Source of the DNA: Dipteris shenzhenensis
Taxonomy: Eukaryota
Length of the DNA: 64,000 nucleotides
Assembly: GCA_047967505.1 (NCBI GenBank)
Contig: CM106538.1
Direction: 5' to 3' (one strand)
Shown here: positions 10,450 to 46,575 of the stretch, one piece after another
How positions within the stretch are numbered: position 1 is the first letter of the stretch
Layout of the letters: each line of letters begins with the position of its first letter
Translations under genes and position numbers: made by a program
The notes under the pieces: model-generated
Databases searched by the model: none
Told to the model about the DNA's origin: nothing
Seen by the model: the letters and a program-made list of their open reading frames with translations, nothing else

Positions 10450-13400
10450 TGTAATGCCAAAAACTGATAATTTTTTATTTGGCATTGGTATTGTTTTTCT
10501 CTATGTTTGATAAGAGTTTGAATTTCAAGTGATAGCCTAGCGGCTCTCACTTATTTCTATTTTCTAAGATATTGTATGGAATTGAGAGCATGAGTGGAAT
10601 GGATCATTGTAAATACCATGTGTATGAATTATAAATACCTTGGTATGGGGTGAGAGTTATTTGTGTATGGGATATTATCAGGTTTTTTAGAAAATAGGAA
10701 GAGTGGGTCATATAAAGATGTCCATGTGTTCCAATGATATAAGAGAGATCACATGCCAAGCATGTGGAGGAGTGTGGAGTCAAGAGGAATCATATCTTCA
10801 TGTGTTGCGAAATATTACTTCTACTTCATAGATGCTGGAGAGAGCACAAACCATATGTGGTTCTTTCCATTCTCCCATAAGAACTTTAAAATGAATCAAA
10901 GTGGAGATAATTTTAGAGTCTGGAAAGCTTGTTGAATTCAAGGGAGCCTTTCATGCAAAGACCTCTTAGTTGATGACACAATGTGGGATAAGCCACAACT
11001 CTTCTTTATCAATGAAACATCAAGTGCTGATGTTTGTCACCTCATTGATAGAATATTATGTACCACCATTGGTAAAGCATGATTATGTAATAGTGACTTT
11101 GGAAGGAGAAGACGACATGGCTTGAGTACCATGAGTCACTCCATTATTACTTCTCTTTGGCACAAACCGGCTTGCTCAGATTATGGCCTCTGTTGATCTT
11201 TTCCTTCTCCCTATGCTTGAGTACAACATCACTTGCAATGTTACCATCTTCATTCTCATCTAAGGGAGGAAAGTATGGTGTGGTATCTTGGCATAAAAGC
11301 TTCTTTTTAATGTCCCTTTCTCAATGATAAATATCTTTGTCACTCAGTTCAAAAGCAGTGGGAAGTAAAGAGGTGCATGAAGTTTATTACCCCCAACTTC
11401 ATGTCACATCAAACGTTTGGTATTGGATTCATCCCACCTTACTAAATGGTCTCATGTGTACTTTATTGCATGTTATGTCTAGTATAGGCATGTGTTTTCT
11501 GATGTGATAAAGAAGATGCTTGGAAAAACTCTGTTAGAAGAGATTGCAACCTGTTTAAGAGAACTAGAAGATTATGAAGGTAATGCTCAAGCTATTCGCA
11601 CGGTCATCATGATCATATCCTTTATGTTTGCACTCTTGAATATGTTGGCAAATCAACAATGCCATCAGCACGCACAATGATAGATTGGGGATTATTTTAT
11701 GCACTGACAGCTTGGTGTGAAGAAGAGTTGAGTCTTTGGGTAGATTTTGACGATAGCAGTGGAGTGGTGATTATCAATGCTTTCAACTTCTTTTGCTATG
11801 AAAATGATGAAGAGTACAATATCTTGAAGCTATTATGTGCACTACCAAGTGTGAGAAGGGTGATTCTTAAATGGATGTATACACAATGTTTTCATGGTGC
11901 TGGTTGGTCACTTTTTTTTGAAGATTTTATTGAGGATCACATTGTGGTGTGTTTTCAACAAGTGGTTCTGCATAATAAGTTGGTCTTGGTATACTAAGGC
12001 TCTGTGGGATCTTGTTTGGATCTTGTTTGGGATATTATTTGGATCTTGGTGTTTCCTTTTTGTGTTTCGTCATGGTAAAGATTCCAGTGTTTTGAGGGAC
12101 CCAAGGGGAAGACCTGGAGTCTTATCTTTGGGATTTTGTTCAAGGATGTCAGCTTTTTGGATGGTCCATGAAGGATCGAGCAGAGATTTTGCCTAATTTT
12201 CTTGAAGGTGTAGCCTTGAGTTGGCATGAGGCCTTGTCGGACTCTACCGAGGAGGACTGGGACCAAGTGGTGGCTGCAATGAAGTAGAGATTTGGGGCAG
12301 TGGAGTCACCAAATTCTTTGATGTTACAGTTGGACCGGTTCTATCAAGGAGAGGGTGAGATGGTCTCTATGTTGGCAATCTGATATGAAACTCTATGGAC
12401 AAAGTATGAAAGGGCAACTTTGCGAGCTATGGCATATGCATCATCGGCCCCTCAAAGTCTTATAGGGATGGAGCACTTAAAGATGAGCGAATTTGTTATA
12501 GCTTTGGAGCCTCATCTTCGCTCAAAAGTAATGAGTAACGATCCAACAACATACATGGAGGCACTTCACATTGCGACCAAGAAAGAAGCTTCTCTAAAGA
12601 TCGAATCCTCTTTTGTGTCTTCAACAGCTTCAACTTCTAAGGGGAGGTAATGGGCACTCCTCAAGTACCAAAGTCCTCTGAGTTGATCATAATATCTCCC
12701 AATTGATGGCAGAGTTTATTGCATTTGGTTAATGCATGACAACCTAGAGCACCAAAGAGTGAGGATAGGCCTCGAGATAACAGTGGGGTCACTTGCTATG
12801 AATGTAATGAAAAAGGTCATTATCGCCCTGACTGTCCTAGATTGAGAAAGAAAGAAGAAAAACAAGTATCCTTGTTAGAAGCTTCTTTAGGGGATGAGGA
12901 AAGAGAGGTAATGATGGCTAAACGGGGGCGTGGTAAAGCAAAAGAAGAAGAAGAAAGCAAGGAAGAAGTAGATGAGGAACATCAGGAAGAGGAATGCCAT
13001 AGTAAGAAAAAGAAGGCATCTAGAAGGAGAATTAGCCAATCAAATTTTCCTTTAGGCCAAGGCATTGGAAGCTATGACTTGTTGTCTGACCTTAAAGAAA
13101 AGGAAGCTCATATCACCTTTGGTCAATTACTTGCTTTGTCTCCAAAACTACGGAAAGAATGGGGAAAGCTAGCAAGCACAAGAGTGTCAAAGAAGAAAAG
13201 TGCCATTCCTATTGTTCAAAATGTAGATATAGAGGTTCATGATGATGTACCTGTGGTTGATGTGATCATTGATGGTCAAGTGATTTCTAATCTTTACATT
13301 GATGGAGGTGCATCGATTAATGTCATGAGTGAGAAGACCATGATAGATGCTGATTTAAAATACTCTAGTACTACCTCTCCCTATCGCATCAAATTGGCTA

Positions 13401-16400
13401 ACAACACTAGGGTAAAGACCTTGGGAGTTGTGAAGAATCTAGAAGTAGATGTATGTGGAATTTCTGTGTCGATCGACTACTTTTCAAGTGATCCCTACCA
13501 AGCCCGATGCATGTTCCTATCTTTTGATTTTGGGAAGGCCTTGGCTATGCAAGGTCAAGGCTATTCAAAAGTGGGATACTGGAGAATTGATTTTATAGGG
13601 AAATGTTGATAAGAAGGTGCACTACAACATCAAAAGTCACAAAAAGAAAGTTGTCAAGTTGGAGTCTTCAACATCAGAGAGTTCGAGAGCTCTGACTTAA
13701 CTGATGAAGAAGAAGAGACAGGGTGTAGCTCCGAGAAGTCCAGCTCAGAGGGTGAGGTGGAAGGAGTGGCCTTTGGTCTTTGTCTTGCAGGATGAGTTAG
13801 GAGGGAACAAGTTGGTGGTACAAGAAGATCTTGTAGAACACTTCATGTGGAGGATGTGGAGCACACTAAATGACACCAATGCAATGAATAGCTACTTGGT
13901 GATTCTCTATTAGGTAGTGAGAAGCTCTAGTACTTGGATATGTTAGATGATTTTCCATATCTCTTTGCAACAAGCTAGCTTATTCACAGGTTCAACCAGT
14001 CTCTCTTGTGGAGCACAAGATTGAGTTGAAGCTAGAAAGCAAGCCAGTTGTGCAATTCTTAAGGTGATTGGGAGTGATCCAAGATGAGGCACTAAAGAAA
14101 GAGGTAACACAACTATTTGAGGCAAGATTCTCATCTTTCTTGTTGATGATTCAGAATGGATATCTCCTGTAGTTGTCACACCAAAGAAAGGAAATAAGTG
14201 ACAGGTATGTGTGGACTCTTTTCTTTGAATGCATGCACTAAGAGGAATCATTTTCCTTTGCCATTCCAAGATGAAATACTAGACCAAGTAGTAGGGCATG
14301 AGATGTATTCTGTATGTGATGGGTATTCTGAGTACTTTCAAATTCGCATTCAGGAGGAAGATCAAAAGAAGACATCATTTGTCACACCTTGGGGAGTTTT
14401 TGCTTATAGAGTCATGCCTTTCAACTTAACCAATGCACCAGCTACATTTCAAAGGTTCATGATTCAAGTCCTTAAGCCTTACTTGGGAAAGTTCATAAGG
14501 GTTTTTTTGGATGATTTTTGCATTTATTCTCAATGCATAGATCACATGGAGAAGTTAAAGATGGCCTTAGCTAGGATTGATGAAGCAAAAGGGTGTCTAA
14601 ATCCTAGCAACTATCATTTGGCTCAAACAAAAGTAGCCTTGTTGGGGCATATTGTGTTTGAAGAAGGCATGCAAATGGATCCTGACAAGGTTTAAGCAAT
14701 CATGGCATTGCCAAGTCCTGAGAGTGTCACTGGTGTTCACAGAATTCTAGGAAAGAGCAAGTATTATCAACATTTTTGTGATGATTTCATAGAGATAGTG
14801 CATCCCATGAATTTCTTTCCAATGGGGTGTGGAGCAACAAAGTCTATTCTAGGAAAGAGCAAGTATTATCAACATTTTTGTTGGCAAGAAAAGGAATTTC
14901 TTTCCAATGGGGTGTGGAGCAACAAAGTCTATTCAGCAACTTAAGGAGGCCATGAGTAAGGGCCCAATATTGAAGCCCCCTAATTGGTCTCAAGACTTTT
15001 ATATAAATCTAAGTGTGTCTTTGCATTCAGCTCATGCTATGTTGCTACAAAAAGGAGAGGTAGGTAGAATGCAACCCATCTATTATGCCAACTGATAGCG
15101 TACAGAGGTGGAAACAAGGTATGAAGAAATGGAGCAGCAAGCTCTCTCTTTGGTGTTTTCAGTTAGAAAGTTTCGCTCCTATTTATTACCTCGACCATTT
15201 TTCTTCCTTACCTCTCAATCTATATTAGCATATCTAGTTTGCAAGCCTAATCCTGGGGGGAGATTTACAAAATGGTTATCAAAGCCTCAAGATTTCTCTT
15301 TCTCTTTTATCACTAAAAATACCACTAGGTCCACTATGGCAGATTTGCTCACAGGGGACGAGAGGATGTAGGAGAAGAAAAGAAATGTAAGGAGAGCATT
15401 AAAGATGAAAGGGATACACCACCAACAGCTTTTGTTTTGTATTTTGATGGGCCTTTTAGTCCTTCATGCCAACAAGGAGCCACGAGGATAGTCTTGATGA
15501 ATTCTGAAGGTCAAGAGGTGTGGGCAAGAGGACAAAAGCTTCCAGGTATCACAACTAATAATGCAGATGAGTATAATGCTTTGATTCTTGGTTTAGAGGG
15601 TTATCTTCAAAGTCAAGTTAAAGAATTGGAAGTAAGAGGACATTCTCAGCTTATTATAAAGAAAATGCAAGGGCATTAAAAGACAAGAAGTCCTCATTTG
15701 AAGGAGCTTAATCAAAAGGCTATGGCATTATGTGGTCATTTTGCAAGTTTGTTCATATAAACAGAAAAGAAAATCAAAGGGCAGATGAGTTAGCTACTCA
15801 AGACATTGTAGTACAAGACAAGGAGGTGGTTTCTTTGGTAGACACTGGATCGCCAGAATTGCAAGATGTTCAACAATATGTGGAAGAAGGCATGTTTCCT
15901 CGAGGGTTAATTCCACAACAGAAGTAGAGATTGGTAAGGAAGGCTTGTCCCTATACTATTGTTGATGACATTCTTTATAAATTGGGAAAAGATAGGGTGC
16001 TCAGTCAGGTGGTCCATCCCATGGAGACTAGAAGAATCCTAGAAATGTATCATGAATGCTCTGGTCATTTTGCTTAAGCAAGCACAACTAGGAGAATTCT
16101 TAATGCAGGTTACTTTTGGCCATGCCTCCATAAGGATGTACATGAATGGTGTTGAAGTTATAAAGTGTGCCAAAAGTTTGGAACCTGATTCGTGGGCCCT
16201 TGAAGCCTATTCAAGCATATGGACCATTTGAGAGGTCGGTGGGACCACTCCGTCGCTCATCTCAGAGCAAACATTATTTATTGGTGGCCACAAATTATGC
16301 AACTCGATGGGCAGAGGCCAAGGCCATAGTCAATAGCAAGGCAAGCACGATTGCAAAATTTCACTTTGATCAAATTTGTTCATGCTTTGGTTGTCCTTTG

Positions 16401-19012
16401 GAAATTCTCACTGATGGAGAAACCTCTTTTAGAAATGAACTAATTGAAGATGTGGTGCATAAGCTAAAGATAAATCATAGCATGTCCACGCCATACTATC
16501 CCCAATGTAATGGCTTGGCTAAGAGAACAAATGGATTGTTGTGCAATTCAATGGCAAAGCTTGTAGACACCAAGAAAAGGCATTGGGATACGCACTTGGC
16601 AGAAGTCTTCTGGGTTTACAGAACCACATACAAGCTAGCTATTGGGTTTACACCATTCCAACTAGTGCATGGAATAGAAGCCATTTTGCCCATTGAATTG
16701 GAGATACATAGTCTTTGCACTATTGTTGCAAGAAAAGGACAGGAGGATGCCTATGCTCAATGCTTGGTACAGCTAGAAGCCTTGGATGAATGCAGATTAT
16801 AGGCCTTATAAATCTTGGAAGCTTCTCAAAAAAGGTGCAAGACCCGTTTTGCCACCAAATTATGCAAGAAGAAAGATATTGCAGAAGGAGATTTGGTCAT
16901 GAGATTTGATAGCTGTTTGGACAAGTTACTAGACAAAAAGTTTATCAGCCAATGGGAGGGACCATATCGAGTCAAGAAGAAGTTCACCAATGGAACCTAT
17001 CAGCTTGAGGATGTTGATGGCATGGTGATACCCGGATGCATCAATGAGTATTGCCTTAAATTCTTCTCTGCTTAACCACCTTGAGGGCCAGCAAAACTCT
17101 CGGCAACTAGAGAGGATCTGCTGGGGGGGAAAGATGTGACGCCAAAATTTGATATTTTTTAATTTAGCATTGGTATTGTTTTTCTCTATGTTTGATAAGA
17201 GTTTGAATTTCAAGTGATAGCCTAGTGGCTCTTACTTATTTCTATTTTCTAAGATATTGTATGGGATTGAGAGGATGAGTGGAATGGATCATTGTAAATA
17301 CCATGTGTATGAATGATGAATACCTTAGTATGGGATGAGAGTTATTTGTGTATGGGATATTATGGGATTTTGTAGAAAAAAGGAAGAGAGTCATATAAAG
17401 AAGTGGGCTCATGTCCATGTGTTCCAATGATATAAGAGAGATCACATGCCAAGCATGTGGAAGGCATATGGAGGAGTGTGGACTAAAGAAGAATCCTTCT
17501 AGAATTCCTATGTGGAATAAGGAGGATGTGGACATATGGAAAAGAGAGGGTCCCTATGGGCTCCATGTGGGGAGACTCTTGAATTTCTCAATATTTTAAG
17601 AGTCTTGAGCATATTTTGATGGGACACATGGCAAGAGTAGCCAAAAAGGACATGGATGGTGACATATGGGCTTATGTGATTGATGGGGAAAGGAATCTAC
17701 AGGCAGCAATTGTAAATGGGTGGAGGGTGACTAAATCTCTATAAAAGGAGCCCTCCTCTCCCTTGCTCAACATCTCTTCCACCATTAGGCCTCATGTTGC
17801 TGTAGCTCTAGTCTCCTCAAATCTCTTCCATGAGCCTTCTCTCCCTCTTGTAGATATTCTCTAATGTAGACTCTTGAGTCGATCTCTCTCTAGTTCATTC
17901 TCTCTCTATGAGTAGTCTTGGAGCTTCCGCTCCCTCTTGTATGTATGAAACCTCTTCTTCTCCCTTGTGGTTGTAGTATTTTGAGTTGCATTGGATGGAC
18001 CCCCACTCTATTGGCAATGAAGATCACTTCGTATTCGCTCTCCTGAGTCTCTCTTCCCTTTTCTTTGTTTCAAAGCCTTAAAAGTTCTTTCTATTCAGCT
18101 GCTCATTGTTGCAAACACATGGTCCATCCATTTCACAAGCCACCAAGGGAGTTACTTACCCTCTTCTAGGTGAAATCTATGAGTGGTGGATCGTTGATGA
18201 AGGTGGAGTCTTGAGGGAGCATCTTGCTCATGCGAAATTAGCATGGGTGGAGGGCAGTTTTTATGACAGTTTGACCCCCTATTAGTGTTTTGCTCATAAC
18301 TTTCTGCTCAGTAGTCCAATTTTGATGAAACTTATATCAACTCTAAGCTCTCTTCAAGACACATGGCTCTATGTGATTAGATAATACTACTGCAAACAGT
18401 TATGAGTCTCTGTGTCTGACAGTCTGTTTTCATGACAATTTTTACCTGCATCTAGTAAACTGCCCAAAACTTTTTGGCCACTTATTTTTTTCTTACGAAA
18501 CATATACAGCATGAAGCCCGCATCTCTATATGTGTTTGAATCTTTAATATCACGTCTTTATTGAAAATTATAGGCCTCTGTGTCTAATACAATTTGTAGA
18601 GTGTTTTAAGCTAATTGTAAAGGTATCTATGAAGGAGGTGCAATGTTTCCCTAGAACCTGCCCATCCGACCCAATCAGCCCCTTGAAACTCCTCGATATA
18701 TATCAGTTCATGTCATGTTGAGCCGCAAGATCTTCTTTCAATAACATATTGCTCTTCTCTTTGGCACAGACCGGCTTGCTGAGATTATGGCCTCTGCTGA
18801 TCCTTTCCTTCTCCCTATGCTTGAGTACAACATCACTTGGGATGTTACCATCTTCATTCTCATCTAAGGGAGGAAAGTATGGTGTGGTATCTTGGCATAA
18901 AAGCTTCTTTTTAATTTCCCTTTCTCAATCATAAATATCTTTGTCACTCAATTCAAAAGCAGTAGGAAGTGAAGAGGTGCGTGAAGTTTATTACCTCCAA
19001 CTTCATGTCACA
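10450..19012 (+). mobile_element. Full-length but decayed Ty3/Gypsy element of non-chromoviral OTA/Tat type, with an additional RNase H
   Basis: 5' LTR 10450-11408 and 3' LTR 17135-19012 (TGTGAC...GTCACA termini), PPT ggggggaaaga at ~17123-17134. It splits host integrase B between ..GDWV and LMFN.. Confidence 0.88.
12140..17075 (+). pseudogene. gag-pol: capsid, CCHC knuckle, protease, RT, RNase H, additional archaeal-type RNase H, integrase; many stops and frameshifts
   Basis: CYECNEKGHYRPDC (~12795); IDGGASINVM protease; CDGYSEYFQI and FLDDF in RT; additional RNase H YFDG...TNNADEYNALILGL...LEVRGHSQLII (15437-15679); integrase STPYYPQCNG and WEGPY. Confidence 0.9.
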
Positions 19013-19016
19013 ATAT

Positions 19017-19254
19017 TGATGTTTAATATAAAATTAGGAAAGTTTCTCGATAAATTAAAGTTGAGATATGATGGTTCATTCAAAATTGTGAAGGAACTAG
19101 GCCAAGGCACATTCCGACTAGCTGACGTGCATGTTTATATATCAATGAAAGCAATCAATGGGTTCTGATTGAAGCAGTCATCTTTATATATCGATGAAAG
19201 CAGTCAATGGGTTCTGAGACTGAAGCCATTTGTCATATTGAAGAAAAATTATAA
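19017..19254 (+). pseudogene. Gypsy integrase C-terminus, GPY/F region (host element B, part 2)
   Basis: LMFNIKLGKFLDKLKLRYDGSFKIVKELGQGTFRLAD...INGF*LK; continues the remnant that ends at 10449. Confidence 0.7.
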
Positions 19255-19256
19255 TA

Positions 19257-19283
19257 CGGGAGAATTGGGGTCTCCAAAGGGCC
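19257..19283 (+). repeat. Left terminal inverted repeat
   Basis: Matches the reverse complement of 28128-28154 with 2 mismatches. Confidence 0.88.
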
Positions 19284-20027
19284 CCCAATTAGTGTTTCCT
19301 AATTTCAATGGATAAGTGAGGTATTTGAGGTGTACCAATGGGAGTGCTCCTGCAAGTGGAGGGTGGATAGACCTGCAAATAGCCCCTATTGGCTACTCCT
19401 CTTACACTGGGGACCACTCAAACCATCCCCCCCCCCACTCAACCCATGCTTGACACTTTTCCCATATGCACCTCTCCCAAACAACCCTGTAAGTCATTCA
19501 ACATGCGGTGGGCCCTTCTGGGTGAATTTTTTCCCCTCTTAGCTTGTTACAAGCCTGGCCCCTCCTCTTCTCTGGTCCAGCTTCATTCTCCCTCCATTTT
19601 TCAAACATGGGAACTCACTTGGCAGCTTCTCTGCCCCCTCCTGCTCTGGTCCACTATCTTTCTCCCTCTCCAACACCTCCTATAGCAGCTGCTCATTCTC
19701 TCTCCATTCCTAGCTACATCACCTGCTACAGCAATAGCCCCTCTGCTTTTTCTCCCTCCAATCCTAGCTATAGTACCTCCTATAGTGGCTGCTCATCCCC
19801 CTCTGCTCTTTCTCCGTCCATTCCTGGCTACAACACCTCCTTGAGTAGCTGCTCCCCCTCTGCTCTTTCTCCCTCCATTCTAGCTATAGCACCACCTCTT
19901 AGAGCTTCTCTCAAACTTCAGTTGCACCCTCTATACCTTCTCCCTCTCTCTCCCTCTATCAGAGCTGCTCTCTCCCTTCAAGCTACAATTTCTAGTCCAC
20001 TATTGCTGTTGTGACCTCTATACAAGC

Positions 20028-21141
20028 ATGGTGAGGAGACCATACATGTATTATGTGTCCCATAGGAGCAAAAATGCACTGGGTGAATGGGTGCCTTGCA
20101 CCTATAGCTTGAATGATTGGATAGTCATGAGAGGATCGATCAAGGGTCCACACAAGCTTCCCAAGCGCAAAAGAGGTGATCTTTTGCATGAATGGAAGGG
20201 CTGCATCATGAAGTTCAAGCTTGGGAAGAAAGGATGGCTTGCAAAGGTGCAACACATCTACACGCGGAATGACATGCGCATTCCTCAGTCAAGCAATCAA
20301 TCAACAATACCATCACATTGTAATTATGCATTTTGTGTAAGATTTCGAAGTGTAATGAGTCAGTTTGAAATTATATTTTGAAATAGCACCAGTGTAATGA
20401 GTCAATTTGAAATTGTATTTTGAAATAGCACTTGTATATAGAAAATGTATTTCCTTCAGACTTTGAGGAGTGGTAACCAGTCGAGTGCTTCTTAGGTAAG
20501 TTTACTGCCATTCATGAGGATTTAGGAAGGCAAATGCTAGAGAGAAGTCCTCTGCTTTGAAACAGAGAAATATATATTGGTATAATGCCAAGTACATTAC
20601 TCCAAGGATGGCATCAGGCTATGGCCATCTTCAATGCATTGCAACACCACAACTTGAAGACATGGATTGCAGCATGGTGGACACAAGAACAGTGCAATCA
20701 TACAAGGAAAAGATTGCAAAGGACGTGGACATGGCCATGAAGTTTACATTTGGCTCTAAATGGGTAAGGTTGTCTTGGTTTATGCCTCTGCACATTTTTG
20801 CTTCTTGTTTTCAGAATATCCAAATGCACAGAACAAAAACCATGTGGTCATGCAAGTGCCTACATGAGAATGCCCTTGAGGAATTACTTGGGGTGAATTG
20901 GGAAAGCAGGTCAGGTGAACAAAAGGGTGATCTATTTCAATGCCATGTATGTAAGGACAATGTGGTTCTCAAGTACCACATCTCCCGCCAAATGTTATAT
21001 TTTGCTTTCCAATATAGGCGCTGGAAGAAAACATGTGGCAATTGGCTCCCTCTTAACTCTAACAATGATGATAATATAGAGGTAAATTTATGTATTGGTT
21101 CTCATTTAGGAGATGTCAAGAATGTGACTATCACATCATAG
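20028..21141 (+). pseudogene. BAH (bromo-adjacent homology) domain protein with an uncharacterised C-terminal domain; disrupted
   Basis: TYSLNDWIVM...EWKGCIMKF...LAKVQHIYTRND...NY[~120 bp interruption]VFPSDFEEW*PVECFLGKFTAIH...NIYWYNAKY follows the BAH pattern (Y.vgD.v.v; yvarI; vrvqwfyrp; Elflsd..d.vp...i.gkc.V; ffc...Y). One stop and one frameshift near 20475-20555. Confidence 0.65.
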
Positions 21142-21209
21142 GTTATAAAGTTACTTTAGTTTCAAAGTTTCACTATCATAGCCATAGTTCTCCTAGCTAC
21201 CAAACTACC

Positions 21210-22719
21210 ATGGATTCTACTAGATCTGCTGCGTTCCACAATTTCATCTCCCGTACTCCATTAGTTGATAGAGAGGAGGAGTTATTTCCAGTCTTTGATA
21301 AGAGCATAGATGTCCTAGGCACCCACTTGGGAGCCCGAGATGATTTCGAAGACCTCATCAAGTACATGCAAGACCACGTCACGAGTTTTGCATATCAACT
21401 TGATGAGTCTACAAAAAGATGGGTCCTAATTGATTATTTGAAGTACTTGTTCAACTAAGAACCCAGGTTCGAGAACCTAGGTTTGTGAAGCGTTTAGATC
21501 GCTTTCGAGCCTAGCTCTCACACTCCTAGGGTTTAGGGAGGTGGACACTGATGACCTCCTAGCATGCAGAGTCATTGAAAACACAGGAAATAGGTTCCTA
21601 TCCTAGGAAATGACCTTTATTTTCCTTCTCCAGAGGGACAAATGGAAGAGGAGGTCTCGACCTCAAGCCCTGCCCCTGCCCCTGCCCCTGCCCTTTTGGA
21701 TCCTCTTATTTCTGTAGATGAGCCCAACATCTACAATGAAGAGCCCATAGATAAAGAAGCTAAGGAGCAAGAAGATGCATTGGCCTTAGAAGTGCTCCAG
21801 CGACCTCCTGAACCCCATTCTACTTCTCAAATTCCATCCACCTTGGGCACCACCTCTGTTGACTCTGCAATAGTGATATGGTTTCTTGCTCCCCTTCTTG
21901 TCGATGGAGAACAATACCTCTTTCTCCATGACATCGAGGTTATGTTTGGTCTCCGAGAGAATGAAGCTCTTGGTGTCCTGTGTGGATACCAGGTGGACAT
22001 GACTATGCAAGAACCTGGGTTTTTGGGAGCAGATGATTAAATAGAAGAGATTCTTGCTTTAACACTGGCCAAAATCAAAGATGCAGAGACATCAATCTAC
22101 TCCAACCTACCTGATGTTCCAAAAGAAGCCTCCACATCTCACTCTGGATGTAGGAGGCCTTTGGATCCATCCTCATTGACAAAGAGGAAGGGATTGAGCA
22201 TGATGACTCCATAGTGGTAAGAAACTATGAGCTTTGAATTTCTTCTCTCTTGGTATAATTTTGCTGTAACGGAATTCTAATGTAATGTTGGACTATTGCA
22301 GGATGCATTTGAGGTCGACCTATTCTCATCTCAGCAACACCTTGTTCGCAGTAGCTTCGGCCGAGATCACTCACTTGCACATTACCTTGGCCAAGCAAAA
22401 GGGTGCTTTGTGGTTATCCACAAAAAGTGTTCTCCACATGGCACTGATGACCTTCTGAAGTGCAAGGCTTGTCACGAGTGATTGGTCATGATGACATCAA
22501 TCGCAATGCTACAACGTCATTTTGGTGAACTGCATGGCTGCCCTCAATGCTTTTGGAACCAATTTTCAAGGTATGGCATTGACGGTAGCAGCCATGTCCC
22601 TGGCCAGCAATAACGACAATAGCATTGACTCTCTATCAACTAGGTTTAGAGCTAGGATTGTATTTAGGAATTCAAAGCCCGATGTTCTCAGTGCTTTAGA
22701 AAAGAGAGAAAGGCTTTGA
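21210..22719 (+). pseudogene. Spliced gene of unknown function inside the TIR element
   Basis: ATG at 21210; coding-like segments at 21210-21600, 21634-22216 and 22302-22719; GT..AG intron at 22217-22301; AT-rich 3' region after 22720; several stops. Confidence 0.45.
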
Positions 22720-23281
22720 AGCCTTATTGTATATAATTTTTATTTTATATGAATATAGATATACTTTTTATACAGTGTCCCATTTTGTGTTCTTTTACAA
22801 AATTTATTTTATACTGTCATTGTATTTTGTAACTTTAATTATTGCTGGCATTAATATTTTCATTCACTATTCTATTCAAAAGCATGTTACTAGATAAATT
22901 TTTGTGCTATAATGGTCATTTCTGAGCAATCCAGTAAGAATCTCACCGTGGCGCAAAAGGCAAATGGGTTCAACATCATGCGGGGAGCTTAGAAATGTCA
23001 AAACCCGATCAAATAGGCTCCATATATGCCATACTAGGTTTTGACATTTTTGAGCTCCCCACACGATGCCAAACACATTTGCCTTCTGCGCCATGGCAAA
23101 AAAACATCATTTGACCACTCTAATTCACATTGAACTTGCATAAACTAATGGAAAGCATCACGTAACATGTATAATAACATGGGAATAGTAATAGAACATA
23201 AAAATATATTTTACTCATTGGCCTCAAAGGGTAGAGATTTACAAAATGATTCAGGTTACACCAAATGAACTTAAACAACAT

Positions 23282-24375
23282 CTAGGGCCCAAGGGAGGAA
23301 TCGGAGTAGATGCACTTGGCAAGTGCAAGGTCCTTGTCCATCACTATTACTCTTTTGGCATGGATAGCACATAAGTTCTCATCTTCAAAAAGACCTACTG
23401 TCATCTACTCCGTTACCTCTTGAATTGCTCCATAGCACCTGAAGTGAAGCGCACATCATCCTTGTAATGTTGTGCTATTTCACGTACAACATGTTGGAAG
23501 GGTGCATGAGAAATGAGATTGTCCACAATGGTTTGGAACTTGCGGATCTCTTGAAGTGCCTTGACGCTTGATTTTTTGCACCTCTTAATCTTTGGGGGAC
23601 CCTGCACTGGCCTCTGGACATGGCTGCTTGTCTGCTTTGAACTTTTTTTGCCTCTCCTCCCTTGCAACCGCCTCTTCATACTCCTCTTCTTGTGTCTGGT
23701 GGGTCCTTCAAGGTGGCTTGTTGTGCTTAGGGGTCTTCTTTGTCCTTGGTCCCTTTTCCTTTTGATGAGGCTGTGAGATAGTAGGCTAAGGCTCTTGCTC
23801 AGCTTGTACTAGAGGCTCCTCATATATGACAATCTCGAGGCGCAGAGGGTTGATGGTGCTCTTCCATGCAGTCTGCTTGGTTGGAGGATTGGGGCCAATA
23901 TAATCTGTGAGCCTGCCAAATACTTCCTCTTATTGTGGCCCCTTTAATCTCTCCATCTCCTCTCCTTGCCTTTCTTGCTCCCCTTGTTGGTCTAGATGTT
24001 CCATGCTAGGACCCCACGAAGGAGGGAGGGGCAGTTGATCACGATTGATTGGACTATTTTGTCCCTCTTGGGAGACCTCTCTACTTCCACAATTAGTTGT
24101 GTGGAAGGACTAAGAGGACCCCTGATCGTGCTTGGATGCTTCATCGTGCTGAGATTCCTCATGGTGCTGAGATCCCTCGGATCCCCCATGAGAGTCGGAT
24201 GGTGGGGACTTGCGTTGCTCAAACTCCTAATGATGAGAACCAACTTCAGATCCCTATTGATCATTGCCCTCTTGGCCACTGGGGCTTGCACTGTGTTTGG
24301 AGGCCATGGAGTTGTGAGGAGGAGAGTGGGTAAATGGCGTCCAGTGGGTCTAGTAGTTTGTTTAACTCATGCCAT
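23282..24375 (-). pseudogene. Histone H3-like gene with a greatly extended N-terminal tail (stops and frameshifts)
   Basis: Starts MA*VKQTTRPTG (cf. MARTKQTARKSTG). Histone fold reads [10 protein letters not shown]...[66 protein letters not shown] at 23300-23570. Confidence 0.9.
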
Positions 24376-24671
24376 AGAAATGAGGGATTTTAGGGTTTTG
24401 AAGTGCTTTATATAGTCTTTTTTAAAGCACTTTAGGGTTTTTCTTTTAAATTAGGGTTTTTTGAGTGCACCCCCTCCCCCCAGTCTTTTGTCGGCCAGTT
24501 TGGTAATACTTAATCTTCGCCACCCTCCCTCCCAACCCCCTCACCCCTTTGCCCTGCCATGTCGCACATGCAATTCTGCAATTTCCAAGCAAATTTGCGA
24601 ATTTTGGAATCTATAATTGACTCCAAACATTGTTAACTTTATTCATTAAACATTTTACACTTGGGGTACTC

Positions 24672-27442
24672 TTAGGACCCAACGCCTCCCCTATCTGACT
24701 CTATGTTGCAACCAAAGTGCAACCCCTTGGCTCTTGTTGAGGACTTCCAAGTAGCACATCTCCTTGTCTTCTTGACATGTTGAACTGCTTTTGCAAGACT
24801 TGAGACCCCAACCTTATTGTTCTTGAGAGTCTTGGCCTCTAGACATGTATAAAACTAGTTAAAAATTTCATGTAGTGCATTGCTTCATGCGATACCACCC
24901 CCATGCCTTATATTCTTAAAGTATGCTGGCTTTGCTTTGTAGTGCAATTTCTCCATTCCTTGAGTATTCCAAATGGATAGAGGGCCCCATTGCTCCACAA
25001 ACCATGGTGCATGTGTGTAAAGAATATGCTTTAAAGAAAAACATCGTATTAGAAACAAAAACTGACTCAAGTTTAAAGCATAAAATTTCAACCTAAGGAG
25101 GATTACCACATAATGTGTAATATGTGACTCCCCCCATGCTTCTACCATCAATGATATGAATTCTCCCAATGCTGTCCTGAATCTCTCATAATAAAACTCA
25201 TCTATTTAACCTTGTCTAAGCAACTTAATAAATGCATCAAGCTTTGTCCACAGTTTAACTCTCAAAGTAGCAATTTGTGGATATGAAGCTTGATTTGTAG
25301 TGCACTCACACAAATCTTTCTAGTACTCCCAATCTAGGGTGCTTTGAGCCAATGTATGTTTTTCTTTATTAGCATTGTGGTTGGACATGTACCTCCTTGC
25401 CTTTCCTCCACCCATGGACACTTTAGCAGGAAGATTTTGTGTCTTTCCTGATTGTTTCTTATCCTGCTTGAGCTTCACATTGCGTTTGTGAAGTCCCATC
25501 AATGAGAGTAGTTATTTAGCCTTTGCAATGCATTGTGCAGATACTTCTTATGGCCTCAAATTCCAAGCATAAACTAGATGGAGATAGAGTAACTTATCAA
25601 GTATACACAGTTCAACATGCAAAATACACATGTGTACCCACTCCAATGGAATTGGTAGAAGGGGGTCCCACTTAGGATCCTTTTTTTGACGATTAGGGGC
25701 TACACTTTGGTTGCAAGAAAGGATGCTAGTATCACAACCATACAAGCACTTGAGGGTCTTTAAATCACTAGCCAGATGCCATTCAACTTGATACGTTCCA
25801 TGCCCATCCACTATTAATGTGTGCCCTACCTCTTGTCTTTGAATAATCGACGGGATGCCGGTTCTCTTCAAAACCCACTTCAATGTCTCATGGCACTCCT
25901 TTGTGGTCTCAAAGGCTGCAAGCCACCATATGTCCTTACCCTGCTCAACTTCCTCATCCCCTTGAGCAAAACGCAAGGCATCGTTCATAATCCAAATGCT
26001 CACCCTCTCTATCTTGTGCTCTTTTACCAACTGAGCTTCATCCATTTTTATAACAAATACTAGCTTGCCATCTATACAATGGAAGAGAAATATAGTAAGG
26101 ATATAGAAATGAGAAGAAATAAAGTTGAATGTGAAGAGGGAATTTCTCTTACCTTCTTCTCTCATCCCATAGAATTTGACCATGGCTCTCTACAAATTCT
26201 CTGCATCTGCATAAACATTATTCAAAGCATTCATCTCAAACATTTGGATGCCAGATTTTCTTTTACTCTTCCAAGTCATTGTGCCACTTACACAATGGTA
26301 TCCTCCAAGACTTTCTCTAGCACATTGGTTTGTTTCTTGATGTGCAAGCCTTACAGACCATGGTGTTGGCAATGGCATTGTAGATATCTTATACTTTTCC
26401 TCCATAGCAGACTTGAAAATTTTAAAAGTAGAGTTGTAAGCTTCACGACTTACACCAGCAACATCACAAGCTCCAAGCACCTCCTTTGCTTGCACGAGGC
26501 CCTTGAAGTCCTTCATTACCTCTCTAGCAACTTGTTCACATAGCCCTTTTTGTCTAGGGTCCTTTAAAACTTCAATGACATCACTTGGCTTTATTAAACT
26601 TCTTAGATCATATGAAGGATCACTATCATCCATTTCCATTATTCCCATCACATCCTCCATGAAATTCCTAAAGTAGAGTATAAATGAGTCTTAGTGGAAA
26701 CAATGCAACACCACAAATATTTTGAAGTAAAAAATTTCATTGAAAATTTGGGGAACTAACCTTGCAGCCCATATTCTCCTCTTTTGGGCACCACTATTGG
26801 TTGACAATGCATCCATAGATTGCAATTGTCTTTTCCTCTCCTTCAATTTCAAAGGTGTTCCCTTCAACTTTGTACTCGTTCTATCGACTTCTCTTGTTCC
26901 TTCTCCATAGCACGTTGAACTTGGCCATAGATAGACCTTTCCAAATCTTGTTTGCTTTCAGCGAGCTTCTGGATTGATTCTTCCAATTCCTGTCGCTCTA
27001 AGTCTAGTGCACGTGTTTTGTCACTGAGTTCTTTGTTTTGCAATTGGAGATCCTGCATACTATTATGCATTGCCACAATAGTAATATTTCCCAAATGTGC
27101 AAGTTCTTCTACTTGGGCTCTCTACACCTCGCTTGCTTGCATAGCCAATGTCTGAGAATGGTTCAATCAATTTCAATAACTAAGCAATCCAGCATGTCCA
27201 TTGCCAACAAACTAAACAACATCATGCACTGTATGAAAAGGAGGATTCTTTAGGGTGGCAGGGTCTAAAGGATACAAGTTTCCATCCACCCAAAGGTCAA
27301 GATGCTTCTTCCCTTGCAATCAAAGGCTATGGAGCACACTTTGAGGCATTCCACTATATCCCAAATGGTGTGTGCTTGCATATTCTACCTCTAGTTGTAG
27401 GTTCACATGGTACTTGTTGGATATGTCCTCCAATGGTGCCAT
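24672..27442 (-). pseudogene. RAG1/Transib-like DDE transposase, spliced (about 3 introns), with stops and frameshifts
   Basis: In order: SREAYNS...LPTPWSVRLA; FVIKMD (D at 26040-26042); KECHETLKWVL; HLASDLK (D at 25764-25766); CILHVEL; SMGGGKARRYM; ITHYV|HILYTHAPWFVEQWGPLSIWNTQGMEKLH (E at 24951-24953). Introns at about 26670-26760, 26072-26151 and 25029-25106. Confidence 0.75.
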
Positions 27443-27499
27443 GAGTACTCAAAGAGAGGTATCAGTGATGCAAGCTAAAATGTAGGGGAGAGCTAGCAA

Positions 27500-27955
27500 A
27501 GATGGAGCAGTGAGAGGGAGAGAGTAGCAAGGAAGAGGGAGGAGGAGAAGCAGATCAAGGCAAGAGGAAGAGGAGAAGGAGAGTAGGGTGATGGTGTAGA
27601 AGGGAGGGAAGGAGCTACTGCAAAAGGGAGGAGGAGGGGAGAGATGCTGCAGGAGGGAGGAGGAGGGGAGAGATTTCGCAAGAGGGAGGAGCAGAGGAGA
27701 GGGAGCTTGGGCAGCTAGAGAAGGAGGGGAGAGGAAGGAGGGAGGAGGAGCCAGAAGGAGGAGGAGGAGGGGAGGGGGAGGAGGGAGGAAGAGGAGCAAG
27801 ATGGAGGAGGGGAGAGGAGGAGGGAGGGGGAGGGAGAGGGAGAGGGAGAGGGAGGAGGAGGGAGGGGGGTGGAGGGAGGGAGGGAGGGAGGGAGGGAGGA
27901 GGGGGAGGGAGAGAGAGAGAGGGAGGGAGAGAGAGAGAGAGGGAGGGAGGGAGAT
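27500..27955. repeat. GA-rich low-complexity tract
   Basis: Runs of GGA/GAG/GGGA. Confidence 0.9.
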
Positions 27956-28127
27956 TCAAAATTTGAAATTCAAATTTCAAAAAGTGTCCCCCTCCCCTCA
28001 TTGATGGGGGGAGAGGTGGGCTCAAATGTGGGCTTAACCCATGTAGGTTGGGCTAGTTAGGCCTCTTTGGGACCCTCCAAGCCCCTTGCATAAGCCCACT
28101 AAGCACTCCCTAATCCATTCCTTATGA

Positions 28128-28154
28128 GGCCCTTTTGAGACCCCAATTCTCCCC
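28128..28154 (-). repeat. Right terminal inverted repeat
   Basis: ggcccttttgagaccccaattctcccc followed by TA. Confidence 0.88.
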
Positions 28155-28389
28155 TAATGGATCTAACTTCGGACCATTTGGTCGGACATCGGACTTTTGG
28201 AGATCCAATGTTTGGGTACATTGGGCTTTAAAAGAAGAAATCATGCAAGAAAGTTATGACAGTGACACTTCCCACATGCAAGCATTCTATCACATGTAGA
28301 AATCAGCATTTCACTTTGCTCACAATAGTCATTCTAAATTCCTCATCGTCCTTCATGTGTTTCATCTCTACTATCCCCATTGGTTTCTC

Positions 28390-36800: not shown

Positions 36801-39495
36801 GCCAATCTTGCCTCAGGCTCTGGTTACTGTTATTGTTGGAGATATATTGGTTGCAGTTGTGCACCAAGCTGTAGCATCTTGTGGGGCAATTCCTCAATTT
36901 CGACCTCCAGAATAGGTATTTCTTCTAAGGCATCTGCACTTGCCAATGTGATAGTAGGAGAAGCTCCCATACTAGTGAGAAGGGTATATCCAACTCCTCT
37001 ATTGGTTTTGGTGATTGGGGCAGAGTCATTTCTCATTCTTGTAGCTCTTTTTTTATGATTATAGCCAATAAGTGTGAATTTTACATTTTTGGCCTAATGA
37101 ACCATCTAGTTTTTTTGTAAACAAGATGACTAAGTGCTGAATCTAATCTTTCTTTAGCTTCCTACTCAGCAAAACAAATGTGTGAAGTGGAAGGGATCGA
37201 TTCTTACCGCACTTAACCCTAGGATTGTGGATAGGAATTGTGCTACTTCCTTCAGGTGAGGTTTAAGGATGGTGTGAAGTAATATGTCGTCCCTATGGAA
37301 CAGTGTGCCCTTGGTGAGGAGAGGCTGTACTTCAAGAAATTTTGCATCGGTAGGCCGTGTAGGGTATTTGGCACCTTGTGTTGGGAGTGAGAAATCCCTT
37401 TGAATGACTATACTATCGAGGATAATGTTGAGTGGGCTCTGTTGTACAGTGATGGTACTATACTTGTTGCCAACCTGTGCATTGCTAAAGTGGTAAGAAT
37501 GGAGAAAGTCCTTGATGTATGTGGTCATTGTAGGACTATCCTCCAAGGATTTTAGGCTCTCATGCAAACTTCCTAGACCCCTTTGCTCTAAGTAAGATGT
37601 TGCTTCTTGGGAAAGAGCATAAGTCGATGTAGGTGGTCAAACAAGTTCCAGTGACTGGGCCCTGTGGGTGGCATTTGTTCTTCTTGGTCATGCACTGAAT
37701 GCTCCTTGGAGCTATCACTCTGGACCATAAATGCCTATGGTCATCGCCGTGGTTGAGAGGATGTAAATGGCTATGAACTCTGGAGGGGGTCTCATGCTGG
37801 TTGAGGTGGTGGGCTCTTTCTGCACATCCTCTTTAGTGGCAGCATTTTTTTTGAACCTGCATCCATGTGCATGTGGTGTACCATTGATCATTAGATTAGT
37901 TGGCATGTAGGTATGATCTTTGTGTGTGTTTGTGAGAGATCTTATTTTTATACATGCTTTGAGAGTGTGGAATGAAAGTGTGTGGCACAATTATTCATGC
38001 AATCATCTATGTGTCTAAGCAAAAGTGTGTGAGTGCATGTGACCTAGTAGCTAGGTAGGGACTAACTATATGCTTTTTTTTTTTTTTTTAACTGGGATTT
38101 CATAGGGCAGCTAGAACTCAGGCATCACTTCTGAGCCCTAGGTTAAAATCGATTGATGCTACCTATATGTGCGAAGACATACATATGCAAGTGAGTGCTC
38201 GTGATACAATCTAATCCTAACTAAGGAAGACTTGGTTTCCTAAATCTTCATTTTTGTTGGGGATGGCTTACATGTTGAAGTAGTAGCGCTTCAGTCGGCT
38301 CCCATTTATTATTGTGTTGAATTGGACTCCATCCAATGTTTCTAGTAGCATAGCTTCGATGGGATTCATCTTTCTTACTTGGTAGGGTCCTTGACCTAGA
38401 TACTTCAATTTCCCCTTGTGTACTTTGGCATTGTATAACAAGACCAAGTCACCTTCCTTGATGTCTTTAGTTTTAAGATTTTTGTCAAACATGCCTTTCT
38501 TCTATGTTTTTTTGTTGTCATGGCATGGTAGGTGACTAGTCTTGTCTCTATATGCTTCTCCAACTGATAGAGTCTTTCTTTCAAGGATTCATGGTCTCCC
38601 ATGGGTTCCTGTACTACTATGTGTAGGCTTGGTATTGCAAATTCTAGTGGCACCACAACTTCAAGGCCGTACACCAATTGAAAAGGTGTGTTCCCTGTAC
38701 TGACCTTGAGTGTGGTTCTATATGCCCATAAGGATGCATTCAAATTCTCTGCCCAATCAGAATGATGTGGTTCTACTACCTTGGTGAGGATGATGCATAA
38801 TATTTTGTTGGTGGATTCGACTTGTCCATTCCCTTGGGGGTAGTAGGGTGTGCTTTTTATATGGATTACCACATAAAGCTAGACAAGAGTTCTTGGATTA
38901 CCTCATTGACAAAATGTGTGCCTCTATCTGACACAATTTCAATGGGGCATCCGAATCAGGTGATCACATTTTCGTATAAGAATCTTGCTATGCTTCTGGC
39001 ATCTGCCTTTCTGATTGCTTTAGCTTCAGCCCATTTTATAAAGTAATCAGTGGCCACAATGATGTAGCATGCCTGTGTTCCTTTTGCTGCTAGATGGATG
39101 GGACCCACATAGTCAATCCCCCATTTTTCAAATGGTTTTTGTGCAATAACTGTTGTTAGGGGATTGAAGTCTTTGTGTTGTGGTTTTAGTAGTCCATTGG
39201 CATACATCACAGCCTTTTACATATTCATAGGCATCTGCCCACAGTGTTGGCCACCAGTAGCGTGCAAGGAGGACTTTTCTTGCTATGGCTTCCCCTTGGA
39301 AGTGTCCTCCTACGATGCCTTCATGGACTTCACTCAGGATTGGCATGATCTCATGAGGCATTACACATTTTCTTAATACCTAGTCCTTGCCCATCTTGTA
39401 TAGTTGTCCTACAATGAGTTGATAGGGTGTAGCCTTTAGAATTAGTTTTCTGGCATCTACTGCTTTCATTTCAAGGGGTGGTCTTCCTACCACTA
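33900..39495 (-). mobile_element. 3' part of a non-chromoviral Gypsy: integrase plus ~4 kb of additional ORFs
   Basis: Integrase at 38268-39490 (EVHEG..GGH..YWWPTL..C..CQ; PFEKWGIDYVGP; STPYYPQGNGQVES; GPY). Same-strand ORF fragments follow at 33915-37800. Confidence 0.8.
34708..35340. repeat. Near-perfect tandem duplication with a 314-bp unit
   Basis: Identical text offset by 314 bp (e.g. 34761 vs 35075); duplicated peptides in ORFs 34853-35080 and 35167-35376. Confidence 0.9.
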
Positions 39496-45800: not shown

Positions 45801-46541
45801 GAAGAACACCGAAATTGTGGGTGCTAACTCACCCAGATCAAGGTAAGCTCTTATTATGTATGTATGGTACAAAGGGGTATATACTAGGCCATTGGCCTTT
45901 ACCCCAACAGCTCAGGTAGCTTGGGGAGGCTTAGGGCTAGGCACGCTTGATTCTCGGGTTGAGTGGCAAGGGTACGAACCAGATAGAGATCTCTGCTATT
46001 TTTGGCGAATTGGGCTCGAGTCTATAAAATGGGCCCAGAGATTCAATCTTCATAGAGCCGATGGGAGCAAGTCTAGTTCCCTAGTGCTAGGTCCTGATCC
46101 TAGATTGAGTCATGGACGCGCACCTGCATCTTAGCGTAGCCCAGACCCAATAGCAGATCCGAGGCCTATAGGCGCCACAAGGTGGTATGGGACACCAGGT
46201 TGGTCAAGATTTGGTTGGCAGTTTGTGCCAGTAGCTCAGCTCGTGGCCTTGCCTCCTTAATAATACACCTAAGTGTGAGGAGGTGATCCATGGTCCCATG
46301 ATCATGTCAAAATCCAGCCTATCCATCTGCTCCAAGTCCCTGCATCTCTGCGGACTAACCTCAAAATCAAGCACTGACGCATAAATCTTGGACGTGACAC
46401 GTCCGATCATAATGGAGAGAGAGAGAGAGAGAGATCTGAGGATGATCATTGATGTCTGGACACTAGAGGTGGTCACATGTGTATTAGACTTTAGTATGTC
46501 AGATTTTATATCGGCTCATTCCCGTGGGGGCCCGTCTGGCA

Positions 46542-46545
<4 letters not shown>
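42875..46545 (-). mobile_element. 5' part of a second Ty1/Copia element (LTR, PBS, leader, gag, protease, start of integrase), truncated at the neighbouring Copia
   Basis: LTR ~45762-46545 (TGAT...ATCA); PBS TGGTATCAGAGC at 45748-45759; gag from ATG 44426; CFYCGKKGHFKKDC, WILDSGASFHVT, LWHRQLGH, LELVHSDVCGP. Confidence 0.85.

Positions 46546-46572
<27 letters not shown>

Positions 46573-46575
<3 letters not shown>

Follow-up and report, generated by a model that had tools for sequence, protein, structure and literature searches.

The nearest precedent for a histone gene owned by a transposon comes from fungi, where hAT transposons have captured histone H3. Pyrenophora tritici-repentis is described as holding 10 long and 16 short copies of an expressed H3-like gene (PMC3538342), and Pseudocercospora fijiensis and its relatives as holding hundreds of copies, all of them inactivated (PMC6710886). 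Such recent captures by hAT elements in a few fungi are the only setting in which transposon-owned histones have been known so far; the cargo known from transposons comprises transposases, DNA-binding helpers and, at times, anti-silencing factors. Here we analyze a stretch of 64,000 nucleotides from Dipteris shenzhenensis (assembly GCA_047967505.1, contig CM106538.1; hereafter the window), which is plant nuclear DNA. Taking identity and anatomy together, we consider it probable that positions 23282-24375, read on the minus strand, are a decayed copy of a transposon-carried histone H3-like gene, here named H3L, and that its host element is a candidate cut-and-paste DNA transposon of ~8.9 kb, at about 19255-28156.

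The hAT elements of Dothideomycetes share with this locus an H3-fold gene that lies inside inverted repeats beside a transposase gene and a further open reading frame (ORF), that has been amplified, and that occurs in intact and inactivated copies. The transposase is of hAT type there, whereas here its predicted fold is of the RAG1/Transib-like kind and no hAT Pfam domain is present. The hosts there are fungi, whereas here we are dealing with a plant window, a transposase relative in Klebsormidium and metagenome contigs. Finally, the fungal genes are recent near-copies of the host gene, whereas H3L is a diverged H3 in which the tail has been replaced by one of up to 180-270 residues.

Within plants, the 'H3-like' variants of the survey PMC4357034 resemble H3L in their altered tail lysines and degenerate N-termini and differ from it in being host genes; in the main text of that survey, the word stem 'transpos' is absent. 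Our literature searches brought up no paper on a histone carried by Transib-like or RAG-like elements or by DNA transposons of plants, and the supplements of PMC9435367 and of the fungal H3L papers could list the family. The interest of the locus lies in this family, of which the window copy is only a fossil.

A decayed histone H3-like gene

The limits of H3L were taken from a three-frame reading of 24420-23201, in which the start ATG lies at 24375-24373 and the terminal TAG at 23284-23282 of the minus strand. The core histone profile PF00125 (cut-off 26.4 bits) matches the ORF 23413-23808(-) over the first half of the fold, with E = 4.4e-7 and 30.6 bits, and the ORF 23291-23398(-) over the second half, with E = 1.3e-5 and 25.8 bits, slightly under the cut-off. 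The fold as a whole spans about 23565-23291. When it is compared with the canonical H3 P0002 (segment REIAQDFKTDLRF), APFQ and DVRF are present and loop 1 has the canonical length. The features on which a preliminary description of this DNA had relied, namely its quoted strings, the PFQ glutamine, the RF phenylalanine, the length of loop 1 and the H3-H3 interface LCAIHAKRV, are therefore all found in the minus-strand reading.

The same agreement extends to the tail. The N-terminus reads MA*VKQTTR, with a TGA as third codon at 24369, and the distance from the ATG to the fold is ~810 nt, matching the ~270 codons that had been estimated. The main portion of the tail, 248 codons in a single frame (24328-23584), consists of 17% Asp and Glu, 16% Ser and Thr, and 10% Gln, and acidic residues, Ser, Gln and His are abundant in the tail. 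Neither an ARKS-type (K27) nor a K36-type context adjoins the fold, as the preliminary description had also remarked.

Two statements about the state of the gene had to be revised. The histone fold had been called complete, but it is divided by a frameshift at ~23431, and helix 2 is broken by a TAG at 23407. A single stop had been implied for the tail, but the tail contains seven (TGA 24369; TAG 24256, 24229 and 24112; TAA 23932; TAG 23788; TGA 23710) and requires at least two further frame changes, near 24330 and near 23600. In all, the gene carries eight in-frame stops and at least three frameshifts, so that a match to the core histone profile stands beside the loss of an intact ORF. Because of these stops and frameshifts, the window copy makes no protein and is functionless today.

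Anatomy of the host element

From left to right, the element comprises the left inverted repeat, ORF2 on the plus strand, H3L and the transposase on the minus strand, and the right inverted repeat (Table 1). H3L had been described as transposon-borne, and this stands: it is flanked by a transposase pseudogene on one side and by a second, conserved element gene on the other, inside a pair of 29-nt inverted repeats, and the succession of transposase and H3L on one strand recurs in five metagenome loci. The 26-nt core of the inverted repeat has two matches in the window, where none is expected from 100 shuffles. Inverted repeats of Transib/RAG type begin with a CAC-type heptamer; the repeat found here begins TAC/TAG-GGGAG, not CAC. 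Ends of hAT type (TAG/TAC-GGG) were considered and rejected, as there is neither an 8-bp duplication nor a hAT domain. Among the related metagenome loci described below, the core of the window repeat is absent from all 33, and the seven long ones show no convincing terminal repeats.

Table 1. Features of the window, with coordinates counted from its first nucleotide.
Feature	Position	Strand	Basis or remarks
LTR (long terminal repeat) retrotransposon	11150-19012		259-nt LTRs at 11150-11408 and 18754-19012, 95% identical
Left candidate terminal inverted repeat	19255-19283	+	27/29 complementary to 28128-28156
Left subterminal CT-rich repeats	19400-20000	+	mirror the AG-rich block of the right end
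ORF2 remnant	21594-22716	+	tblastn of L026 ORF2 and profile matches; converges on H3L and transposase
Inverted repeat of 60 nt	22946-23096		arms 83% complementary around a 31-nt loop; separates the 3' end of ORF2 from that of H3L
H3L pseudogene	23282-24375	-	PF00125 matches, stop positions, tblastn of 15 family proteins matching here alone in the window
Transposase pseudogene	24885-27430	-	24 homologues, alignment, model and fold search
Right subterminal AG-rich repeats	27450-27955	+	mirror the CT-rich repeats of the left end
Right candidate terminal inverted repeat	28128-28156	-	pairs with 19255-19283
Retrotransposon remains	38405-38878 (-), 40013-42441 (+), 43330-43890 (-), 46499-47812 (-)		integrase and gag-like frames
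PPR gene	49821-52082	-	753 residues, uninterrupted; PPR_2 E = 6.6e-84; the only clearly intact host gene in the window
Low-complexity TG/TA-rich array	58099-58908		open in several frames (CMYV-type repeats)

The element is also represented in other sequencing data. Two runs are listed with matching contigs (shares 0.06 and 0.05), with no RNA run among them, and their contigs cover 27 and 24 of the 30 bins of 19200-28200 at 80-99% identity; therefore, this stretch is a repeat in other genomes as well. One of the two runs has no contig over 22210-23112, a segment that holds the 60-nt inverted repeat. A contig of run X2 matches just 28111-28163, i.e. 53 bases at the right inverted repeat, with unrelated sequence on both sides, suggesting that this repeat end is present elsewhere too, for example in non-autonomous elements of short length.

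A multi-copy family of H3L proteins

A phmmer search with the window histone returned 1874 proteins at E <= 0.001. The top matches are mis-predicted concatenates of H3, and the true family members among them, recognized by motifs shared with the window copy, are only P0013 and P0016, both of which are unnamed singletons in the cluster look-up. A search with P0016 yielded a family of 15 protein clusters, all from ENA contigs of 540-1253 bp and 76-96% identical to P0016. All 15 match the window at a single site by tblastn. In P0013 and P0265 the C-termini are shifted, as in decaying copies. Longer relatives of the ORF 23413-23808 were not found, and much of its first 50 residues is out of the gene frame. 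One family protein, P0153, also aligns to the window tail, including its KQTA.KS motif (E = 1e-8), and the tail therefore belongs to the family gene and is not an accident of the window copy.

A tree built from 56 H3-fold proteins places the window copy inside the clade of the ENA family (support 100/100), which has a long stem. The terminal branch of the window copy measures 0.87, a length that fits a dead copy.

Intact H3L proteins share a common design. They open with ~10 residues retained from the H3 N-terminus, including the surroundings of K4 and K9, after which come a spacer, a basic patch and the H3 fold in full. The spacer is variable (50-180 residues), rich in acidic residues, Ser and Pro, and stands in place of the K27 and K36 contexts. 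The fold is about 55-62% identical to canonical H3 and retains the H3-H3 interface string together with most of the arginines conserved in H3.

H3L follows the transposase in some related loci

Scanning metagenome contigs with the transposase alignment gave 33 related loci, of which 14 extend at least 500 bp beyond the transposase match and can be tested for a following gene. Searching all 33 by tblastn with six H3-type queries located an H3 fold in L001, L002, L014 and L031. In each of these loci H3L lies immediately 3' of the transposase on the same strand. Counting L023, where MARTKQTARKD... follows the transposase before the contig ends, H3L is found after the transposase in four testable loci (L001, L002, L014 and L023), and a fifth, L031, has it at the contig end. 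The spacing between transposase and H3L in these relatives is about 100-300 bp.

Several of these genes are in better condition than the window copy. The H3L of L001 is an open frame of 184 codons with a complete fold, and L002 has the same gene with one in-frame stop. In L014, 268 codons are open before the contig ends, running from MARTKQTAKK through a tail of 181 residues into the fold. PF00125 matches the three genes with E-values of 7e-34 (L001), 6e-26 (L002) and 3e-18 (L014). The preliminary description had made its proposal depend on intact copies in which the long tail runs on into the fold, and L014 provides such a case in a single open frame, with a tail shorter than the proposed 270 codons; the tails of L001 and L002 comprise only ~50 residues. 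At position 10, where H3 has Ser, both L014 and L023 have Asp.

The long tails show a further peculiarity. A second motif resembling the H3 N-terminus, PPTKQTAWKST (of KQTA.KS type), occurs in mid-tail of the window copy at ~23890. The long tails hold two such motifs: in the window copy these are MA*VKQTTR (24366) and PPTKQTAWKST, and in L014 (3633-4436) they are MARTKQTAKK and MGRVKGKAQR. Judging from these motifs, two histone gene starts that were fused or partly duplicated may have given rise to the long tail. In L001 (2587-2856, plus strand) and L002 (3059-3238, plus strand), a third frame that is rich in Ser and Pro begins ~350 bp past H3L with MVRVKKTPTR... and MVRRKITPRR..., respectively, and both contigs end there; this frame may be a second histone-like gene.

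We considered how the loci with H3L are distributed over a tree of transposase cores (54 rows, after four had been dropped for short coverage). The carriers form two clades, each with a support of 100 in the Shimodaira-Hasegawa-like approximate likelihood ratio test (SH-aLRT). In the clade of L014, L019, L023 and L031, H3L is present in three of three testable members; in the clade of L001, L002, L003 and three proteins, it is present in two of two. The window transposase stands apart on a long branch. H3L has been kept across transposase lineages that are just 34-60% identical.

Selection and origin of H3L

Over 176 codons, the H3L genes of L001 and L002 differ by a nonsynonymous divergence (dN) of 0.29 and a synonymous divergence (dS) of 1.27, a dN/dS of about 0.23 in the one pair compared, with dS near saturation. 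Identity at codon positions 1, 2 and 3 is 0.72, 0.80 and 0.50. The transposases of the two loci give a dN of 0.27 and a dS of 3.9, near the H3L figures. This codon pattern is that of purifying selection, as read from a single pair of sequences.

The origin of the gene is less clear-cut. H3L had been held not to be CENH3. In the 56-protein tree, the seven CENH3-type rows from angiosperms, of which six are named CENH3 and one is a CENH3-like protein of Persea, form a clade of their own (100/100), apart from that of the window copy and the ENA family. An approximately unbiased (AU) test, however, fails to reject a single clade of the element histones and CENH3 (p = 0.49), just as it fails to reject a single clade of all element histones (p = 0.36). 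The CENH3 sequences in our trees come from angiosperms only, with none from gymnosperms, ferns or bryophytes, and both H3 and CENH3 are possible as the source.

The likeness to CENH3 is itself divided among the lineages. With CENH3/CENP-A, H3L shares the H3 fold and a long, fast-evolving N-terminal tail without K27 or K36 contexts; the ENA family has IP..AF and RW at angiosperm CENH3 positions, and L001 and L002 have a lengthened loop 1, which is longer by about 14-15 residues, and group weakly beside plant CENH3 (SH-aLRT 80). In contrast to CENH3, H3L is present in multiple copies (15 clusters and the repeat contigs), is carried by an element and keeps the H3 N-terminal motif, and the window copy and the ENA family form their own clade, with a loop 1 of canonical length in the window copy and in most ENA members (one has a single additional residue).

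A transposase with a predicted RAG1-like fold

The transposase frame 26720-24885(-) is interrupted by six internal stops. Its N-terminal part, HLDLWVDGNLYPLDP followed by a coiled coil, lies upstream in a different frame and extends to about 27430, and the segment that bears the CxxC motif of the family is missing from the window copy. When the frame is read through its stops as X, it finds 24 homologous proteins (best E = 4.2e-106), all of them without Pfam domains; among them is a hypothetical protein from the charophyte Klebsormidium nitens. The family alignment contains the conserved motifs KLDE, WHLAGDLKTLK, PCIYC, VHxCTLH and QGMERSH, in this order. The acidic, CxxC and HxCxxH motifs are common to the family, in an order that may correspond to that of RAG1.

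An AlphaFold 2 (AF2) model of the 900-residue member P0282 has a mean predicted local distance difference test score (pLDDT) of 70.6 and a predicted template modelling score (pTM) of 0.60. Searched against the PDB with Foldseek, the model gave 49 matches at E <= 1e-3, and the 37 listed consist entirely of chains of RAG1, of the amphioxus RAG-like protein or of the Helicoverpa Transib transposase, the best being 6dbo_A (2e-11, TM 0.60 on the target), 6b40_A (1.6e-8) and 6pqr_A (1.4e-5). The next fold in the ranking is the P element transposase, at 2.3e-2. In its predicted model, the transposase thus looks like the RAG1/RAG-like/Transib type of fold. A protein-language-model search placed RAG1 clusters at 0.94 and a Tnp2 cluster at 0.92, which we treat as leads only.

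A transposase of the CACTA/Mirage/Chapaev (CMC) type was also considered and found no support: there is no match to Transposase_21 or related Pfam models and there are no CACTA ends. To our knowledge no CMC structure has been solved, and the fold search is thus blind to CMC kinship. With Transib and RAG-like transposons, the element has in common the predicted fold, shared with RAG1, BbRAGL and HzTransib, and a possible 5-bp duplication; it differs from them in the lack of a Pfam RAG1 match and in inverted repeats that do not start with CAC. In plants, 39 Transib-like proteins have been reported, and the same paper describes RAG-like elements with a 5-bp target-site duplication and a CACACCC element (PMC9435367).

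A convergent second gene

The remnant of ORF2 was located by tblastn of the ORF2 of L026, which matches 21831-21980 with E = 7.8e-5, and by profile matches at 21594-22037 (E = 4.4e-5), 22281-22478 (E = 0.0078) and 22495-22716 (E = 0.047). The profile matches are colinear and are the best in the whole six-frame window. The gene may start farther upstream, where frames are open from 20518. From the order and convergence of this remnant it follows that the window element holds three genes, with H3L in the middle.

Among the related loci, ORF2 lies on the minus strand at 3261-4884 in L006, 3045-4962 in L007, 3290-5120 in L011, 3105-4572 in L013, 2807-4832 in L020 and 3467-5347 in L026, where it reaches 627 residues. 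ORF2 has no Pfam match and no usable match in the Atlas; its AF2 model, predicted to be mostly helical, has a pLDDT of 52.2, and a wide search for similar structures reached a Z of 4.8 at best, with no clear fold. In the abstract of PMC7204232, RAG-like transposons are described with a second gene that converges on the transposase gene. The layout of ORF2 and the transposase is likewise convergent, as in RAG1-like/RAG2-like pairs, and nothing marks ORF2 as RAG2-like.

Possible roles of H3L

Our tentative proposal, one that we would not yet call likely, is that RAG1/Transib-like transposons of the green lineage have long carried an H3 variant under selection, which would enter nucleosomes either to escape K27/K36 marking or to guide integration, and which in one sub-lineage may be CENH3-like. 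In active elements, H3L would pair with H4 and be built into nucleosomes, whether on the element or at the site where it inserts, and chromatin without the K27 and K36 marking sites would allow the element to stay expressed. That H3L enters nucleosomes, and that the resulting K27/K36-free chromatin aids the element, seems to us a real possibility that still falls well short of probable. The idea of chromatin that resists repressive marking agrees with the loss of the K27 and K36 contexts alone, since the K4/K9 context is preserved in the relatives.

Should the fixed place of H3L beside the transposase and its codon pattern of purifying selection hold in whole genomes, this would mean that a mobile element directly shapes nucleosome composition. 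It would also offer a natural H3 variant without K27 and K36 contexts for chromatin experiments, and it would extend the RAG1-like transposons of streptophytes by a branch about which little is known, with a second gene of no clear fold.

A number of observations count against this proposal or against the anatomy on which it builds. The inverted repeat is only 29 nt long, no second copy confirms the ends, and a clean target-site duplication was not found around the element, the best candidate being TAATA/TAATG (4/5) with the ends placed at 19257/28154. The other of the two sequencing runs has no contig over 23414-24617, the region of the H3L tail, though the flanks are covered. The fold of the transposase is assigned from a model of middling confidence; the RAG1 Pfam models match none of 21 family members at E <= 1, and a profile search of PDB sequences found no RAG1 chain, with phmmer and profile searches giving chance or coiled-coil matches. 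We have not filed the element as a Transib member because no curated model matches, the ends are not CAC, and the duplication is one of 4/5 that depends on how the ends are placed. H3L is lacking from 10 of the 14 testable loci; in eight of these ORF2 comes next to the transposase instead, and the other two show neither gene. The element histones form three lineages in the best tree (the window copy with the ENA family, L001 with L002, and L014), and several captures are as possible as a single old one. The signal of selection, finally, comes from one pair with dS near saturation and assumes descent from one gene within the element.

Some of these points would be expected if H3L were a passenger, that is, a host H3 taken up once or several times by transduplication, of no benefit to the element and decaying everywhere. 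The dead window copy, the truncated or frame-shifted state of several ENA members, the in-frame stop in the H3L of L002, the ten testable relatives without the gene and the failure of the element histones to form one clade in the best tree all agree with this, as do the fungal precedents, which are captures, in one case with all copies inactivated (PMC6710886). A passenger does not readily account, however, for the equal position and strand of H3L in two deep clades of the transposase, where no testable member lacks it, for the open frames of L001 and of 268 codons in L014, or for the L001/L002 comparison, where dN/dS is low and third codon positions are far more changed than second. It also leaves aside the derived features shared within lineages, namely the N-terminal motif, the insert in loop 1 and the C-terminal extension seen in L001 and L002. 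We regard it as unlikely. H3L might instead serve the transposase itself, by tethering or guiding it to nucleosomes or by mimicking a histone tail for a reader or writer of the host; in its long-loop variant it could imitate CENH3 and so direct the element to centromeres. The tight and conserved pairing of the two genes across short spacers points this way, as do the retention of the first ~10 residues of H3 while the remaining tail has been replaced, the Asp for Ser at position 10 in L014 and L023, and the longer loop 1 of L001 and L002 with their weak grouping beside plant CENH3; RAG2 may offer a loose parallel through its connection with the H3 tail, a subject of published papers. Against such a partnership, elements of the same family without H3L exist, from which it follows that the transposase is generally independent of it, and the full fold with its H3-H3 interface string suggests ordinary nucleosome assembly. 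We judge this explanation as improbable as that of a passenger.

That a host H3 or CENH3 pseudogene came to lie in transposon debris by chance is far less credible than either. The region is a patchwork of repeats and kinship with CENH3 is compatible with the tree, but the neighboring gene and its orientation recur in five independent loci, H3L sits between two genes of one element, its family has many copies, and the region is a repeat on contigs of another genome. Among the readings weighed here, a selected H3 variant carried by RAG1/Transib-like transposons is the one that we favor, with the reserve stated above.

Surroundings of the element

The remainder of the window holds the retrotransposon sequences, the PPR gene and the low-complexity array listed in Table 1. 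In the LTR retrotransposon to the left of the element, the gag/protease, reverse transcriptase and integrase frames are broken, and its end lies 243 bp from the left inverted repeat.

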